DNA from: Alphaproteobacteria bacterium
GTDB taxonomy: Bacteria > Pseudomonadota > Alphaproteobacteria > MPNO01 > UBA830
Direction of reading: 5' to 3'
NCBI GenBank assembly: GCA_965243135.1
Contig: OZ251539.1
Coordinates: forward strand, 2,976,001 to 3,040,000
Length of the DNA: 64,000 bases
Made by a program: the position numbers and the translations under genes. Position 1 is the stretch's first letter; the number at the start of each line of letters is the position of its first letter. Positions 1-8,200 of this stretch are shown in pieces. A model generated the notes under the pieces. The model saw nothing but the letters and a program-made list of their open reading frames with translations, was not told the origin of the DNA and ran no database searches.

Positions 1-3000
1 TCCCGCGCCGCCGCAGGACGGCCGCCGAGAAAGGCGCGGGCCTCGTCCATGGCGTCGACCATCCGCGCATGGCCGCTCGCCGCGCGGATCAGGTCGAGCA
101 GGTCGCCCTTCTCGCCGGTCGCGGCGTCGGTCCACTTGCCCCGGCGGCCGCCCGCCAGATGGACGTAGAGCGACTGGCCGCGCTCTCCCGCCACCGACCC
201 CGCCTGCCAGTAGTTGCCGGCGCGCCGGCCGTTCGGCAGCCAGGTCCGGCAGACTTCCTCCGCCCGCGCCGCCAGCGCCGCGGACAGGTCCGCCGCCGAG
301 GGCCGCGGCGCGCTGCGCTCGGGCGCCGGCGCCATCTCCTCCTCCGCGTTCCGGAACGTGGATTCGCCGTTCCGTTCATGCCCGGGCGCGGCGGCCTTCC
401 GGTAGCCGTCCGCGCGAAGGTACTGCGTCTCGAATTCGTCCAGGTCATCCTTGCCGATCCCGGCGACGCGGTCCAGCACCGGCGCGTAGCGGCGGGGCTT
501 CGCCCGCCAGCGCGCCGCCATCTCCAGCGCCGCCGCGTGCCGCGCCAGCGTCGCGGCGAAGGCCGGCTCGGCCGCCACCGCCGGGCCTTCCCGGCGCGCC
601 CGCTCGCGCAGGTATCCCCAAGCTTCCATGATCTCGCCGCGTTCGCGCGCGAAAGCGCGCATCTCCTCTCCGTAGCGCAGGTCGAGGGCGGCGTTGCGGA
701 CGGCGCGCGCCATCCTCGCGCTCCAGTTGTCGTTCGCCGCGCGCGCCTCCGCCGTCCGCCCGGCGTCCGCGGCGTCATTGGCCGGCTCCGCGTCCCCGCC
801 GCCGGCCGCCTCGCGCCGTTCCGGACCCGCGGCCCGTTCGGCGTCCGCGCGTCCGGAGTCCGGCGCAGCCCCGGAAGTTCCGGCCGACCGCGCGTTCCTT
901 CCGGCCTTCCCGAAGGCGCCGTCCCGTCCGTCCTCGCGGCCCGGGCTCCGCCCGTCCCGCGCCGCCTCGCGTTCCGCCCGCATCCTGGCCCGCAGCTCGT
1001 CCGACATGTGGTCGACGGCCGCGACCTTCGGCTGCTCCCGCGACCACCGCTGCGCCAGATACTCCTTCACCTCTTCGTCGGTGACCGGCTCGTCCATCCG
1101 GTCTTCCGGCCGCCGCGCCGCGACGTCCATCGCCAGCGGCTCGCGGTCGACGTAGACGTCGAGACCTTTGCGATGACGGGTCGCCGCCGGATAGATCGTC
1201 TCCCTCGCCGGCTTGTCGTCGGCCAGCAGGAACGCATGGTCGACCGTCGCCCCCTGCGCCGAGGTGATCGTCAGGGCGTAGCCGTAGTCGAGCCGGATGT
1301 TGCCCCGGAAGTCCGCGATCTCGTCGTGCGCGAACGTCACCCGCCGTCCGTCTTCCGTATGCGCCTCGATCCACAGCCGGAAATCGTCCCCGCCCGAGGT
1401 CTTCCGCCCATCCGCCAGTTTCTCGATCCGGAAGTCGTCGACCGTGACGATCGTGCCGTTGAACAGCCGCTCGTCCCAGTGCGGCGCGCCGCAGCGCAAC
1501 CGGTCGCCGCGCGCGATCTCCAGCGGCGTCGCCCGCCGGTCGTCCAGTTTCCCCCGCGCGACCCGCACGACCGCCCGCTCTGCGTCCTCGCGCCCGGCGA
1601 GGACGCGCTCCCGCATCAGGAAGGACAGCGCGCCCACCTCCGCGTGCGTGCGCGCCAGAACCATCGTCGACCTGTCCGGGTTCTCGCGCCGGTAGCGGTC
1701 CCAATCGTCGACCAGCGCCGTCAGCGCGCTCTCCCGGTCCGCCGCGAGATGAAACCGCCCGCGCGCGTCCCACGCGGCGATCGCTTCCTCGGCCCGGCAG
1801 TCCTTCAGCGCCTCCGACGCCGCTACCTGCCACGGCGTGAACTCCGGCTTGTCCGCCGTCTCCGCGAACGCCCGGAGGCGCGCCTCGCGCTCCTCCGCCG
1901 GCATCATCCCGGCCTTGAGCCGCGCCGTCTCCGGGTCGAGCCCGTCGACGTGCCGCAGCACGTCGTCGATGTCAGGAAGCTGCCTGCGGATGCGGTCGAC
2001 CCGCGCGCTGCCGGCCACGTCGCGCACCAGCCGCAGTCCCGGCCCGGCCTCCACCGGCTGCTGCTGTTCGGTGTCGCCGGCCCACAGGATCTTCGCTCCC
2101 GTGAGCTTCGACAGCCGCATCAGGCTGTACGCCTGCCGCACCGAAAGCATCCCCGCCTCGTCGACGAAGATCACCGTCCGGTCGTCGATCTCGAGCTGTC
2201 CCTTCGCCGCCATCCGCAGCAGCCGGGCGACCGAATACGGCGGGATTTCGCAGTCGTTGGCGAGCGCCACCGCCGTCCGCCACGCCACCGCGGCGCCCAG
2301 CAACCTGTACCCGCGGTCCCGGTACAGGTCGGCGACCGGCCGCAACGTCGTCGTCTTGCCCGATCCCGCCGCGCCCTCGATGATCGTCACCCGGCCGGCG
2401 CGCCCGGCCGCGTGCCGGATCGCCTCCGTCTGCTCCTCCGACAGCGGGTAGCCGTCCTTCAGCAGCAGCTCGATCTTCGCTTCGATCTCCTGGGCCGGCA
2501 CCGCGAAGCCGGCGGCGCGGACGGCCTCTTCGGCCATATCCCGGATCTCCTCCTCCATCCCGACATGCGCCTTCGTCGAGAAGGCCCGCGTATGCGCGAG
2601 CCCGGCCTCCGCGTCCGCCGAGTCCTCCGGCTTGTCCATGCGCACGATCTCTTCATGGCGCAGCGCGCGCTCCAGGCAGGTCGCGATCGCGTCGCGGTCG
2701 AGCAGCCCCGCGGTCGCGTTCTGAACCCGCTCGACGATGTCGGGCAGGCGGAACACCGCTTCCTCGCGGGTGAGGTCGGCGGGCAGCTTCTCCAGGGTTT
2801 CCGTGAGCTTCCGGATCGCTTCCTGCGTCGTCTCGATCTCGTGCCCGGCCGCTTTTTCGATCATCTCGCGGACGTTCTCGACGAACGCTTCCGCCTCGCG
2901 CCGCCAGCGTTCGTGGCGCTCCTCCGAACCGTTGTCGTGATATTCCTTCCGCGCCCGGGACGACAGGTTCGCCTGCGCCGCCCGCGACGCGTTGCCCTTC

Positions 3001-3782
3001 ACCGAATATCCCTTCTTCGCCGCTTCCTCCTCGATCGTCCGCCGCCGCTTCGACCATTCCTCGACCAGATCCTCGGGGATCCCGACGATGCGCGTGAACT
3101 CGCCCCGCGCGCCGTACCGCTCCGTCCGGATGCCGAGCCGCTCCCGGAGGTTCCACGCCAGCGCGTTGCGGTAGGTCGCGCCGGCCGCCATTTTCCATCG
3201 GTAGAGCGGGTACTGGTGGACCGCCCGGAACTTCCCGTCGAAATGCGCCCGCGCGACGTTCAGGATCACGCAGTGCGTATGCAGTTGCGGGTCGTTCGCC
3301 CGCGACGAGCCGTGCTGGAACGTCGCCGCCATCAGGTCGGCGTCGACGACCTTGATGATGCGCTCTCGCGTCCGGATCCGCGTGTAGCTGCAATGCGCGA
3401 CGACGACCTCCTCGAGCGCCGTCCGCGCCGCGTCGTTGTGCGCCCGCTCGATCTCCGCCCGCAGTTCGGGGTCCGCCACCGCCCACAGCGCCGACACCGT
3501 CTTGTCCGCGGAGAACGTCATGTCGAGGCCGGCCGAACGGCCTTCCTTGCCCGCGTTCTGCGTCAGCGCCGACCCGTCGACCGGGGAAAAGCCGCCGTAG
3601 AGAGCCATCCAGTCGGCGGTCTCGACCTTGCCGCCGTCGGCGAGATCGAACAGGCCGGACGGATTGAACCAGACTCCGTCCGGCTCCTCGCCGCCGACGT
3701 AGTACGAATCGGCCGGCCGGTACGACTGTTGGCATTCCATGTAATAGGCGGCGTCCGCCGCCTGGCCGAGCGAGCAGACCAT
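1..3782 (-). CDS. MobF (TrwC/TraI-like) relaxase-helicase with C-terminal primase-type domain; 3' end lies outside the window
   Basis: Hand translation from ATG 3782: MVCSLGQAADAAYYMECQQSYRPADSYY (two YY pairs), DMTFSADKTVS, HUH motif DPQLHTH, Walker A IIEGAAGSGKTT, VIFVDEAGML. It is absent from the ORF track because there is no in-window stop; + ORF 69..3944 is its antisense shadow. Confidence 0.92.
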   Translation of the reverse strand, partial: MVCSLGQAADAAYYMECQQSYRPADSYYVGGEEPDGVWFNPSGLFDLADGGKVETADWMALYGGFSPVDGSALTQNAGKEGRSAGLDMTFSADKTVSALWAVADPELRAEIERAHNDAARTALEEVVVAHCSYTRIRTRERIIKVVDADLMAATFQHGSSRANDPQLHTHCVILNVARAHFDGKFRAVHQYPLYRWKMAAGATYRNALAWNLRERLGIRTERYGARGEFTRIVGIPEDLVEEWSKRRRTIEEEAAKKGYSVKGNASRAAQANLSSRARKEYHDNGSEERHERWRREAEAFVENVREMIEKAAGHEIETTQEAIRKLTETLEKLPADLTREEAVFRLPDIVERVQNATAGLLDRDAIATCLERALRHEEIVRMDKPEDSADAEAGLAHTRAFSTKAHVGMEEEIRDMAEEAVRAAGFAVPAQEIEAKIELLLKDGYPLSEEQTEAIRHAAGRAGRVTIIEGAAGSGKTTTLRPVADLYRDRGYRLLGAAVAWRTAVALANDCEIPPYSVARLLRMAAKGQLEIDDRTVIFVDEAGMLSVRQAYSLMRLSKLTGAKILWAGDTEQQQPVEAGPGLRLVRDVAGSARVDRIRRQLPDIDDVLRHVDGLDPETARLKAGMMPAEEREARLRAFAETADKPEFTPWQVAASEALKDCRAEEAIAAWDARGRFHLAADRESALTALVDDWDRYRRENPDRSTMVLARTHAEVGALSFLMRERVLAGREDAERAVVRVARGKLDDRRATPLEIARGDRLRCGAPHWDERLFNGTIVTVDDFRIEKLADGRKTSGGDDFRLWIEAHTEDGRRVTFAHDEIADFRGNIRLDYGYALTITSAQGATVDHAFLLADDKPARETIYPAATRHRKGLDVYVDREPLAMDVAARRPEDRMDEPVTDEEVKEYLAQRWSREQPKVAAVDHMSDELRARMRAEREAARDGRSPGREDGRDGAFGKAGRNARSAGTSGAAPDSGRADAERAAGPERREAAGGGDAEPANDAADAGRTAEARAANDNWSARMARAVRNAALDLRYGEEMRAFARERGEIMEAWGYLRERARREGPAVAAEPAFAATLARHAAALEMAARWRAKPRRYAPVLDRVAGIGKDDLDEFETQYLRADGYRKAAAPGHERNGESTFRNAEEEMAPAPERSAPRPSAADLSAALAARAEEVCRTWLPNGRRAGNYWQAGSVAGERGQSLYVHLAGGRRGKWTDAATGEKGDLLDLIRAASGHARMVDAMDEARAFLGGRPAAAR

Positions 3783-3884
3783 CAGCCGCGCTCCCGCGGC
3801 GGTGCCGGGCGGCGGTTTCCGCGCCCGTCCGGCGGGCGGATTCCCCCTTCTTTTCGGCGCTTTCGGGGCCCGGCGGGCGCCGTC

Positions 3885-3960
3885 AGGCGGAGCCGCGGGC
3901 GGGTCGGCCCCGCAGCCGCGCGCGCCGGAGGTGCACAGGTGTGAAGACCAGACATGACCT
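3885..3960 (+). promoter_or_regulatory. Putative oriT with nic at 3942/3943 (AGGTGT^GAAG)
   Basis: Lies just upstream of the MobF gene. GGTGT^ resembles MobF-family nic sites (F, R46), is preceded by a GC hairpin (gcggg..cccgc) and coincides with the duplication junction. Confidence 0.55.
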
Positions 3961-5278
3961 TTTCGCGGTTGCGGGGGATGGAGTATAGGCGCCGGTCACT
4001 GAAGAGCAAGGGGGACGGGGAGCGGTCGTGAGAGTCCGAGGCCGCCGCTCGCGAGCGTTTCGTTGCGCTGGGGGCCGCGCCGAGGGGGCAGGTTGGAGCG
4101 GCTATCGGGTACCGCCTCTGCCTTCGGGGCGAAATGGACGGCGCGCGAGCGCAATGGCAGCGGCGCGAACAGGCATCGGTTCCCCCGGGCGGCAGGGCCT
4201 GGTCAGCGAAGGGGCGGTACGACCGTCAACCGTTCAGCGGCGCTTGCCGCCTTCGTTTGCGATCGGAGCCGGAAGATCCTTCAGGCGGTCCGGGGGATCC
4301 TGCGCTCAGAGTCCGATCGCCGCATCGGGATCGCCGGCGGCGAGCGCATTCATCCAACCGAGGCAAAGCTCGCGGGATCGGAAGCTTCCGTAAGCCGCGG
4401 CTTCCTGACGTTGAACGATCGGAAAAGTCGAGTAGACGTACCGGACATCGTCGCGGTCGGTCACGCCGTAAAGGTGAAAGAAAACGGCGTCCAGCTTCGC
4501 GCGAAGCGAGAGGCGGCGATCCTCGTCCCAAAGAAACGGCGGCAGGACTTCGCCGTTTCCGTCTACGTGGTCGAGGGCGCTGGCAAAAGGGGCCATGTCG
4601 TGGGCCGTGTGAAGACCAGACATGACCTTTTCGCGGTTGCGGGGGATGGAGTATAGGCGCCGGTCACTGAAGAGCAAGGGGGACGGGGAGCGGTCGTGAG
4701 AGTCCGAGGCCGCCGCTCGCGAGCGTTTCGTTGCGCTGGGGGCCGCGCCGAGGGGGCAGGTTGGAGCGGCTATCGGGTACCGCCTCTGCCTTCGGGGCGA
4801 AATGGACGGCGCGCGAGCGCAATGGCAGCGGCGCGAACAGGCATCGGTTCCCCCGGGCGGCAGGGCCTGGTCAGCGAAGGGGCGGTACGACCGTCAACCG
4901 TTCAGCGGCGCTTGCCGCCTTCGTTTGCGATCGGAGCCGGAAGATCCTTCAGGCGGTCCGGGGGATCCTGCGCTCAGAGTCCGATCGCCGCATCGGGATC
5001 GCCGGCGGCGAGCGCATTCATCCAACCGAGGCAAAGCTCGCGGGATCGGAAGCTTCCGTAAGCCGCGGCTTCCTGCCGTTCAACGATCGGAAAAGTCGAG
5101 TAGACGTACCGGACATCGTCGCGGTCGGTCACGCCGTAAAGGTGAAAGAAAACGGCGTCCAGCTTCGCGCGAAGCGAGAGGCGGCGATCCTCGTCCCAAA
5201 GAAACGGCGGCAGGACTTCGCCGTTTCCGTCTACGTGGTCGAGGGCGCTGGCAAAAGGGGCCATGTCGTGGGCCGTGT
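3943..5278. repeat. 668-bp direct tandem duplication (3943-4610 and 4611-5278)
   Basis: Two near-identical copies. The differences I saw are ctgacgttgaac vs ctgccgttcaac. GTGT microhomology at 3939-3942, 4607-4610 and 5275-5278. Confidence 0.97.
4306..4610 (-). pseudogene. Duplicated 3' end (~100 codons) of the Type IIG RM gene
   Basis: TAHDMAPFASALD...DPDAAIGL matches the C-terminus of 4974..8981 with one aa change (VQRQ vs VERQ). Confidence 0.9.
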
Positions 5279-8200
5279 AGGTCAGTTCCAGCACCGCCTC
5301 GCGGACGATTTCTCCTGCCGACTTCGGTCCGAAATTGATCGTCTCGTAGCGTTCCCGAGGAACGACGGGAAGTTGCTCGATTATGAACAGGTTCAAGTTC
5401 TGTCCCTGGACCTTCTGGCGGACGACGTAATCCAGCGGAACCGAATTGAGGTTGGCGACCAGCAGTGCGGTAGTGCCTGCCGGATCTTCGCCGACGTTGA
5501 GCAACGGCAGGGAATTTCCGGCTCCGCACACGGGCAGGACCGCGGCGATCATCGACCGCATGTTCGTTGGAGAGGTGACATGTTTCAAGCCGAGAACGTA
5601 CGACGTACCGGGAAGTTCCGCCCCTTCCTTCAACACCCAGAATTGCGGATCAGGCAGCCAGTCCGGGTCCTGGTGCTGCTTTGCCGTCGCCGGCGCCGGC
5701 TGTGCGGGACGGTGCACGTTCTCCCGGTTCACGGCGACGCTGGCTGCCCGGTGGTCGTACGCCTGCACCATCTTGCCTTCGTAGAGCGGCAGCCACTCGC
5801 CCTTCGGGCTGTCGTAGCGATTTCCGCCGACCAACCAGGCGCCTTCCTTTTCCTCGAGTTCCCACCGCATCCGGAAAAGATGGGAATCGTTGGTCATGTC
5901 GAACATCCGGGTATAAGTCACCGGCCAGACGGCGACCGGCTCGCCCCCCGAACGGTCGACCAGAACCGGCAGGCGTTCGTAGATGGCCGTCGTCAGTTCC
6001 GCGTCGCGGGGGGTGCGGAATATCGGCGCGGTGCCGGTGTTGGGATTAACCCGCGCGAACTCCGCAGCGGTCAGCGGAAAACTGCGCTCCGGGATTTCGG
6101 AAACGGCATGCATGTAGAACGCGCACCGCGCCGGCGCGCCGGTCGGCGACCCGGAAGCGACAAAGACGCAGAATTTGAAACGGCTGTCCACATCCGGAAA
6201 AAAGCCTCTTTTGTTCTCGAAGTCGTACAGCGCCCTGAGTCGGCCCGCGGTCGCTACGCTCTTGAAGAAATCGGCAGCGGTCTTATCCGAGGCGATGCCG
6301 GAAGGCGTGAGCAGTCCGACGATGCCTTCCGGCCGGATCAGCGCCATGGCGCGCTCGACGAACAACGCATAAAGGTTCATGTCGCCGCATGACAACAGGG
6401 GATAATCGTTCGAGGCGCGCGCCATGCGCGCCATGGCCTCGGCACGTTCGCGGGCTTCGTCGTATTCCGCCGCGAGCGGATCCTCTTCCCGTTCCATAGC
6501 GGCAATCATGCGCCTGCGGTCAGCGGCGCGGGTCGCTGCCGCGATCTCCAGACGCCGCGCCGCAAACCACTCCACCTGTTGCAACTTCACCCGGTCCCAG
6601 GGTGGATTGCCGACAACCGCATCGAAACCCCCCTCGCGGTCACGCGCCTGCCAATTTCTCCAGACGCCGGGAAACGCCACCTGCCAGCTGAGAAATCGTT
6701 CGTCGGCCATCAACCCGAAGGCACGTCGGAGAAGCCCGGCGAAACGTTCCGCATCCGCGCCGGTGGCCGCCACGCCTGTCCGCCCCAGCGCTATGTCGAG
6801 CGGATCTCCGAATTGGCCGTCGAAGAAGGCATGCACGGCGCTAGTGTCTTCAGGTTCGCAAATCCAGTCGAGGGCGTGCACCAGCGAAAGAAAGGCGTCC
6901 AGCGGCGCTGTGCGTTCGCGAACGTCGTCAAAAATTTCCGCCGATCTGTCGGCTTCCGCGATTTCGGCGTCCGTCAGCGCCTCGATCGTCTCCATTTCCC
7001 TTTCCGCGGAGGTCGCCCGCCGCAACGGTTCGTGCAGCAGCAGCGGCGACCCGTGCGCGGCCGCCCGGTCGGTTCCCTCCCGAACCCAGGATCCGAACAG
7101 GCTGTTCCCGCAGCGGAGGTGGTGATCAAGGAAGCTCAGCGGCGCTCCGACAGTGAAGGTATGCAACCAGAGCGCCACCTTCGCGAGCTCTACCGCCATC
7201 GGATTCTTGTCTACGCCGTAGACGCAACGCTTGAGCACCATCCGCCGAACGATGTGACGGTCGTCGAGCCGCTCCGGGTCGATAGTCCAGCTCCCGGCCT
7301 CCGCGTTGGCCAGCACGGTGCGGCGGATGTCCGCGATGCGCGCGTTCAACGGCGAACGGTAGCCGTCTACCGCCGCCTCCGCATCGGCGATCGCGGCAAG
7401 AGTGCGATCCGATAGGTAATCCACCACGCCGACCAAGAAATGCCCTGAACCCATCGACGGATCGCACACCTTGAGCAGCAAGATCGCTTCCGCAGGATCG
7501 AGTCTCTCGAGCGATTTTTCTCCGGCCCGGGCAGCGTCCATAAACGCATCGAGGCGGGCGTCAATCAGCGGGTCGAGCGTCTCCCGCAAGACTACCCCGA
7601 CGAGGTCGTCCGGCGTGTAATAGCTCCCTGAGCTTTTGCGGGCGAAGAGGTTGGGGCGAATCGCTATGCCGCCCTCCTCGCGCGCGATCTCCTGCTCCAG
7701 CAAACGCTCGTAGATGGATCCGAGTTGTCCGACGCCGAGGTCCCGGTAGTTGATGTATCGGCGTCCGGGACCCTCGTAAGACAGGATGTCGATCACTTCC
7801 GACATCACGTCGTCGCCGATCCTGATGCGCTCCAGAAGCGGCATCCGCCTCCGGTCGAACAACCCGCCGTTGTATGGCGGCAGTCCGATCCTCGGGTCTC
7901 CCTCGCCGACGATTCGGCAGAGATCGTCGATCGCCGTCCAGTAGCGGGTGGTGGCCGGCGAAAACGGAAGCCCCTGGTTCAAGCGATTTCCGATCTCGCC
8001 TCGCACCTTTTCCCGCAGGGCGTAGTCCGCGTAACGGGGATCGCGGACCGGAAGCAGGTCGCGATCCTCCGCATAGAGAATGAAGAGCAGCCGGTAAAGC
8101 AGAATCAGCGTGGCTTCCCGTACCTCGGCAGCCGCCGCGTCCGGCGCGCCGGCCGCGATCGCGCCGGCGAGCACCGGGAAGACCCGCCCGAAGATCGTTT

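Follow-up and report, generated by a model that had tools for sequence, protein, structure and literature searches.

A tandem duplication between a relaxase gene and a restriction-modification gene

The DNA considered here (the window) is a stretch of 64,000 nucleotides (nt) from an alphaproteobacterium (assembly GCA_965243135.1), which corresponds to positions 2,976,001-3,040,000 of a single 6.1-Mb contig (OZ251539.1) and forms part of a large integrated island of the conjugative type in the chromosome. Near its left end, a relaxase gene and a type IIG restriction-modification (RM) gene, both encoded on the minus strand, flank a 668-nt tandem duplication, one boundary of which falls on the predicted nick site (nic) of the relaxase (coordinates are collected in Table 1). 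A self-comparison of the window, shifted by 668 nt, aligned positions 3939-4610 with 4607-5278; two mismatches occurred in the 672 nt (4408/5076, A versus C; 4413/5081, G versus C), and the sequences to the left and right of the duplication were unrelated to each other. A repeat search returned a 300-nt pair, 100% identical, at the same spacing of 668; Tandem Repeats Finder did not pick up the duplication, its longest allowed period (500) being shorter than the unit.

The tetranucleotide GTGT is found at all three boundaries of the duplication (3939-3942, 4607-4610, and 5275-5278), and because of this common block the crossover can be placed in five equivalent registers. In one of them, the unit starts with G3943, directly after AGGTGT, and the junction reads ..GCCGTGT/GAAGACC... 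An earlier reading made from the letters alone (the sequence-only reading) had proposed a 668-bp tandem duplication with exactly this junction. The duplication was confirmed by the offset comparison and by a read-derived contig across the junction (see below), and the proposed junction is one of the five registers. On the right, the duplication extends 305 nt into the 3′ end of the RM gene, the product of which also gave weak matches to PglX/Alw26I-type methylases, under the NCBIfam cut-offs. The orphan gene tail generated in this way differs from the intact copy by one Glu-to-Gln exchange and one synonymous change. As the true origin and the RM gene are intact, and the extra copy comprises only the orphan tail and a hybrid site that does not resemble nic, the duplication is probably neutral.

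The duplication in read-derived contigs and its absence from a relative

Logan contigs from four public runs were compared with window positions 3400-4660. In run X7, 0.97 of the words were present. The junction was bridged by a contig of 56 nt (record 21, 4581-4636, depth 3), which is exactly the set of junction-specific 31-mers, and the left boundary was bridged by record 16. Record 18 corresponded exactly to 3939-4610 (672 nt); its depth of 5.63 was ∼2× that of the flank contigs (3 and 4.2), which fits two copies in most cells. Run X7 may derive from the assembly's own sample and its depths are low, making it a technical rather than a biological replication. Run X10 yielded no junction contig, but its depth of 2.4-4.4, with holes, renders it uninformative on copy number.

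A different arrangement was observed in X1, a sponge-metagenome run. Its record 2, ∼95% identical to the window, runs from 3890 to 4610 and from there straight into AGGTCAG, which is the undivided, single-copy order. At the two variable positions, this relative carries C at 4408 (the copy-2 letter) and G at 4413 (the copy-1 letter); the copy-1 G at 4413 is, thus, a letter seen in nature. The sequence-only reading had taken the two differences between the copies as a sign that the duplication is no assembly echo. Both differences are present in the assembly; the X7 unit contig, however, shows the copy-2 letters at both positions and gives no independent confirmation of them. The absence of the differences from this contig is what would be expected if the duplication had arisen during assembly or polishing. 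Such an origin is nevertheless hardly credible because contigs derived from reads contain the junction-specific 31-mers at flank depth and the unit at about twice this value, and because the G at 4413 recurs in the metagenomic relative. The duplication is real.

Gene conversion from paralogous RM gene tails was considered as the source of the copy differences. Both of the two paralogous tails carry the copy-2 letters (GAA CGG), and, considering the paralogues and X1 together, the history of the Glu/Gln position is ambiguous. These tails, at genome positions 5633353-5633564 and 5635843-5636033 (loci L003 and L004), are 73-77% identical to the duplicated fragment at the DNA level. When 26 genomes of the family were searched at the DNA level with the intergenic region, only coding-region matches were returned, and scans with exact patterns from the sequence to the right of nic gave 0 matches in genome_contigs and 0 in metagenome_contigs; neither collection, therefore, provided a second carrier, be it with or without the duplication. 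In run X11, which bears the same organism code, 3400-4264 was present without a difference and nothing was recovered from 4265 onward. The RM gene may be variable cargo beside the origin of transfer (oriT), although a hole in the X11 contigs proves nothing in this regard.

The relaxase

The relaxase gene codes for a protein of 1979 amino acids without internal stop, composed of a TrwC relaxase domain, a superfamily 1 helicase, and C-terminal DUF7146 and Toprim domains. The relaxase domain matched Pfam TrwC (PF08751) with an E-value of 8.1e-65 and 219.7 bits (cut-off 25), and NCBIfam MobF (NF041492) with 199.8 bits (cut-off 100). The helicase part matched AAA_30 (1.7e-35) and AAA_19, with TraI_hel_assoc_N (24.7 bits) remaining under its 27-bit cut-off, and the C-terminal part matched DUF7146 and Toprim_3; the gene for this primase-type fusion continues for ∼2.16 kb beyond the left end of the window (L045:17843-19999). 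The closest solved relative was the relaxase domain of TrwC from plasmid R388 (PDB 1omh, E 8.5e-23 over ∼270 residues). The histidine motif including the third histidine, FQH(157)...LH(168)TH(170)C, aligned to FRH...LHTHA of TrwC. Two tyrosine pairs are present (13/14 and 27/28), and SYY(27,28) aligned to DDYY of TrwC. Y13, Y14, H157, H168, and H170 were invariant in eight relatives. By these features, the gene is an intact MOBF/TrwC relaxase gene that retains the putative catalytic residues.

The same chromosome carries two more MOBF relaxase genes (at 433693 and 5475520; L036 and L028), which are near-identical to each other and 60% identical to the window relaxase across 407 residues. Relatives are common: at least 552 candidate stretches encode one, and the contigs of one assembly supply at least nine loci. 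The family (loci L046-L124) stems mostly from metagenome-assembled Alphaproteobacteria, often with many copies per genome. A small open reading frame overlapping nic (3782-4009, minus strand) was considered as an accessory gene and rejected; it had no Pfam match and no coding-type excess of GC at third codon positions.

A conserved predicted nic site upstream of the relaxase gene

The regions upstream of the relaxase gene in the window and of its two paralogues have diverged, save for one island ∼150 nt before the start codon, which reads GGTGCACAGGTGT/GAAGACC in the window and AGTGCATAAGTGT/GAAGGCT in the paralogues. The predicted nic site, 160 nt upstream of the relaxase ATG, is GCGCC-gga-GGTGC-ACAG-GTGT^G, with the left side of the cognate site ending in ...ACAGGTGT. 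The order-level set, drawn from 78 genomes, comprised 30 homologous loci, and nine of them, including the window and the two paralogues, had a strict pattern ([AG]GTGC-N-GTGT^G) upstream. The same pattern matched in 44 of 79 genome_contigs loci. About 40 of these matches were in the expected place, 123-299 nt upstream, and four look like chance; a looser pattern added five further loci, so that ∼45 of the 79 related relaxase genes have the motif upstream. Not all members of the family have the motif: 30 of the 79 loci had no recognized nic site within 1.5 kb.

GTGT^G was invariant in the genuine sites (alignment A1 and 37 outside sites). The arms facing each other co-vary, GGTGC with GCACC and AGTGC with GCACT, as well as TGTGC with CACA in two loci, and the inner pair of the hairpin alternates between C-G and T-A across ∼40 loci. 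A stem of 5-6 bp was formed by seven of nine aligned sites; the two paralogues of the same genome have no such stem. A weight matrix was built from 37 distinct sites, all from other genomes, and scored on the 14,023 GTGT sites of this genome. It placed the three predicted nics of the genome at ranks 1-3 (scores of 16.3, 14.6, and 12.2; the next site scored 6.4), that of the window being third.

The geometry of the window site, as far as it can be judged from the sequence, agrees with the published MOBF architecture. The R388 site comprises a hairpin with a 4-nt loop (Carballeira et al, 2014; PMC4176350). Change is tolerated in its distal arm; essential are the proximal arm (nt 12-16, printed as GGTGC in the oligonucleotide) and the single-stranded stretch leading to the cut. 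The scissile bond is positioned by a U-turn of nt 22-25, for which most MOBF plasmids have GTGT but R388 has GTCT, and a purine is obligatory at +1 (PMC4176350). Taken together, a predicted nic at 3942/3943 on the plus strand is strongly supported. This placement had been guessed in the sequence-only reading from "..TGT" and has now gained conservation of motif and position, a co-varying hairpin, MOBF geometry, and a matrix rank of 3 out of 14,023. The accompanying proposal, that the RM gene leads and the relaxase gene enters last, is in line with the same orientation in every relative that has the motif; going 3′ from nic along the strand predicted to be transferred, the RM gene comes first.

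Rfam had 0 matches in 3000-6000, a promoter scan had 0 matches, and four terminator-like sites (two per copy) were found compared with 1.7 expected.

Two other sequence contexts of the site were observed in runs X1 and X11. X1 record 3 is the same over 3890-3946 and diverges after GTGT^GAAG into GCTATCG..., resembling the right side of the paralogues; in X11 record 15, a different left flank is joined at 3920/3921, just left of the hairpin. The core common to both is ∼26 nt, that is, hairpin, nic, and 4 nt. An exchange of sequence between elements at oriT could underlie these contexts, or they could mark no more than the limits of conservation.

Table 1. Features at the duplicated locus (window coordinates)
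Feature	Position	Strand	Details
Relaxase gene, 5′ part	3..3782	-	ATG at 3782; open reading frame runs ∼2.16 kb past the left end of the window
Imperfect inverted repeat by nic	3922..3934	+	GCGCC 3922-3926, loop GGA 3927-3929, GGTGC 3930-3934; one G-T pair
Spacer and U-turn	3935..3942	+	ACAG 3935-3938, GTGT 3939-3942; predicted nic 3942/3943, +1 is G3943
Duplication copy 1	3939..4606	+	668 nt; extra copy of a 367-nt intergenic stretch and the RM gene 3′ fragment
Orphan RM gene 3′ fragment	4306..4610	-	Last ∼100 codons and stop
Junction GTGT	4607..4610	+	..GGGCCGTGT/GAAGACC..; hybrid of partner left side and nic right side
Duplication copy 2	4607..5274	+	668 nt; runs on into the intact RM gene
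Intact type IIG (Eco57I-like) RM gene	8981->4974	-	1335 amino acids; Pfam Eco57I 1e-19
Partner-site GTGT	5275..5278	+	GTGT^AGGTCAG; left side ..GGGCCGTGT (5266-5278)

The breakpoint coincides with the predicted nic

The microhomology at the breakpoint is exactly the U-turn tetranucleotide GTGT of the predicted nic. In the window reduced to its single-copy form, only 2 of 207,429 pairs of 4-nt microhomologies spaced by 50-1000 nt use the GTGT block of nic (3 of 614,914 at a spacing of 50-3000 nt); if it is granted that one end had to fall within the 523-nt spacer, the chance by position alone is ∼1%. The 5′ partner of the junction is G3943, the nucleotide expected to become linked to the catalytic tyrosine, and the polarity of the junction, from a 3′-OH to the 5′ side of nic, is that of the normal termination reaction, with the 4-nt ambiguity remaining. 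Conservation, co-variation, and matrix scores had not been used in the sequence-only reading; the agreement of nic and breakpoint is, therefore, not circular.

Another way to obtain such a structure would be RecA-independent slippage or template switching between two GTGTs 668 nt apart while the chromosome is replicated, with the match to nic being coincidental. A 4-nt microhomology at both ends is the typical leftover of this process, the partner site is unlike nic outside GTGT, and no recurrence was seen in relatives. Moreover, as GTGT occurs ∼1.15 times per kb and strand, finding a partner 668 nt away is unremarkable. Slippage would, however, have had to strike one particular tetranucleotide, at the odds given above, the importance of which had been predicted and then confirmed by independent data. 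It accounts for the GTGT but leaves the position at nic unexplained, and we regard it as unlikely, although deserving serious attention.

The partner site and the origin of the joint

The second sequence involved in the junction, the partner, is the first plus-strand GTGT 3′ of nic in the single-copy form. The sequence-only reading had seen in it a pseudo-nic within the RM gene. This part of the proposal found no support: the partner shares with nic only GTGT and a purine at +1, and its matrix rank was 11,861 of 14,023, below the mean GTGT score, whereas the foreign look-alike targets accepted by TrwC matched a 17-18-nt core (Agundez et al, 2012; PMC3264647). The hybrid site created at the junction ranked at 5,748 of 14,023 and, judged by this score, is not expected to act as a second nic.

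Given these properties, it is very improbable that the partner was cut as a true secondary nic by means of a second tyrosine, followed by strand exchange with a sister or an incoming copy. The partner does provide the required purine (GTGT^A), but it lacks an equivalent of the proximal arm in register, and the look-alike targets of TrwC had matched the essential core (PMC3264647). By reasoning, cutting both sites on one strand should also yield a 668-nt circle and a deletion, and a duplication would need extra steps.

The duplication is most likely the scar of an aberrant closing reaction at nic. In this model, the relaxase would cut GTGT^G and remain covalently attached to the 5′ phosphate of G3943, while the free 3′-OH would be extended by replacement synthesis and the old strand displaced. 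After 668 nt, the growing 3′ end would read ...GGGCCGTGT, that is, it would terminate in the first downstream GTGT, the U-turn tetranucleotide that presents a 3′ end to the active site. The normal joining chemistry would then link this wrong 3′ end to the G3943 still being held, leaving the plus strand with two units, and the next round of replication would fix the tandem duplication with the junction ..GCCGTGT/GAAGACC... A second cut would be unnecessary, and the product would be a duplication, not a circle. That the bound 5′ end can be joined to foreign DNA has precedent, since strand transfer and integration into non-cognate DNA are catalyzed by TrwC (PMC3264647). From a single junction we infer that this nic is cut and that the relaxase, not a host enzyme, made the joint; we assign a probability of roughly 0.55 to a joint made by the relaxase between the 5′ end that it held covalently and a 3′ end terminating in GTGT.

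The relaxase could also have had a more passive role, supplying no more than a long-lived nick or a 5′ end blocked by protein, with host replication restart or end joining making the joint. The position at nic would be explained as well as by closure through the relaxase, and no action of the enzyme on a non-cognate 3′ end would be required, which fits the poor score of the partner and the substrate requirement of TrwC (see below). Three considerations make this improbable. A 5′ end carrying a phosphotyrosyl-linked protein should not be ligatable by a host ligase unless processed, and processing should shift the junction; a fork running off at the nick would end at +1, so that GTGT would not be available as a pairing microhomology; and the GTGT of the partner would represent a second coincidence (∼1 in 256 per position). 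Only closure by the relaxase accounts for both the coincidence with nic and the GTGT of the partner.

Several observations weigh against closure by the relaxase. It is a single event, and its 4-nt microhomology is what slippage usually leaves behind. No nic-anchored second copy was found within 3 kb in the 44 genome_contigs loci matched by the strict pattern, and none of the 12 pattern sites at the nine order-level loci had a nic-anchored repeat, other than the duplication of the window itself. The partner ranks low and resembles nic in GTGT and the +1 purine only. Nicking and strand transfer by TrwC on oligonucleotides need 6+2 nt (5′ + 3′ of nic; PMC3264647). Nicking within this relaxase clade is, so far, a prediction from sequence. 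The window hairpin is weak, with one G-T pair, and 197 of 200 shuffled sequences folded at least as well; the DNA folding z-scores of the hairpin (+1.71) and of the partner region (-0.77) are both not distinctive. Finally, the run supporting the junction has low depths and is perhaps not independent of the assembly.

Related reactions in other systems

Enzymes of the HUH type can end their reaction at a wrong site that shares a few nucleotides with the origin, leaving one endpoint at the nick, as is the case for initiators of rolling-circle replication. Michel and Ehrlich reportedly described such illegitimate recombination in 1986 at the nick of M13 gene II protein and of pC194 Rep. Those events were reportedly plasmid and phage deletions caused by replication initiators, whereas here a conjugative relaxase, a chromosome, and a duplication are involved. 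Rep of adeno-associated virus is said, going by the title of a 2009 study by Henckaerts and coworkers, to drive partial duplication of its target locus AAVS1. The likeness, as the title suggests it, would lie in an HUH nick and replication from that nick leading to partial duplication of the nicked locus; the differences are that virus and host are eukaryotic and that the duplication is coupled to viral integration.

Among conjugative systems, R388 offers the closest comparison. Both relaxases have the same fold, the HUH motif with a third histidine, and paired tyrosines; the site plan is alike, with an inverted repeat (in the window a weak, putative hairpin) whose proximal arm is GGTGC, a short single-stranded spacer, a 4-nt U-turn immediately before the cut, and a +1 purine; and both origins lie upstream of a relaxase gene read away from the origin. 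The similarity of the relaxase domains is distant, though (see above for its extent), the U-turn is GTGT instead of GTCT, arm and U-turn are separated by 4 nt instead of 5, the loop has 3 nt, and the stem contains a G-T pair. Unlike in R388, no trwA-like gene is present between origin and relaxase gene, the relaxase has a C-terminal primase-type domain, and the element is chromosomal. Relaxase-catalyzed recombination at oriT and integration into look-alike targets are already known (PMC4176350; PMC3264647), and in such reactions, TrwC links other DNA to the 5′ end it has bound, a property that closure by the window relaxase would share. The known side reactions of TrwC use full or near-consensus targets and result in cointegrates or deletions, not in a tandem duplication at a site sharing GTGT alone (PMC3264647). 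The search of the open-access literature yielded no case of a natural tandem duplication in a chromosome that is anchored at a relaxase nic and has the U-turn tetranucleotide as its sole homology.

The surrounding island

The island extends for tens of kilobases to either side of the duplication. The predicted leading side contains an ArdC-type gene, a large serine recombinase gene, a RepC-type gene, and two tyrosine integrase genes, and the core genes rodA, PBP2, mreC, mreB, and leuA start at ∼56.7 kb. The plus strand, predicted to be transferred 5′ to 3′ from 3943, is the template strand of both the RM gene and ardC; the latter, coding for an ArdC-type anti-restriction protein/metallopeptidase, is located at 22392-24026 on the minus strand and, thus, oriented as the RM gene. 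A coupling-protein gene lies ∼47 kb to the left, and the paralogous elements each have one at a comparable distance, 50-59 kb away. As each of the two paralogous relaxase genes is accompanied by a AGTGCATAAGTGT^GAAGG site and a coupling-protein gene, the chromosome is predicted to harbor three related large islands. No VirB4-type ATPase (PF03135) turned up in the genome.

A cluster of defense-type genes is situated to the left of the window, at a distance of 20-37 kb (L044), and at L045:654-7426. It encodes a DEAD helicase of 1799 amino acids with an MrfA Zn-binding domain, an Eco57I-type methylase of 1718 amino acids, an SNF2 helicase of 1074 amino acids, a DDE transposase inserted between those genes, a Vsr endonuclease, and a PLD-domain protein.

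Implications

Biochemistry is the usual route to the nick sites of conjugative elements. In this clade, the hairpin-GTGT^G motif constitutes a testable predicted nic, and the duplication is an independent, nucleotide-precise pointer to the very bond predicted to be cut. If the coincidence of breakpoint and nic is due to chance, what remains is an ordinary neutral duplication beside a well-supported, new predicted oriT. If the relaxase did make the joint, the locus would be natural evidence that side reactions of relaxases remodel the DNA that enters the recipient first. So far, such side reactions are known from engineered TrwC assays (PMC3264647).

Whether the relaxases of integrative and conjugative elements occasionally close their covalent 5′ end onto any 3′ end, nascent or displaced, that terminates in the U-turn tetranucleotide, which would yield tandem duplications beginning exactly at nic and, reciprocally, deletions or minicircles, is a tentative extension that we consider possible but doubtful. 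If true, such closure would be an unrecognized, enzyme-driven source of rearrangements in leading regions, and its scars would permit nic to be located with single-nucleotide precision by sequence only, as here for a whole clade of elements from uncultured Alphaproteobacteria.

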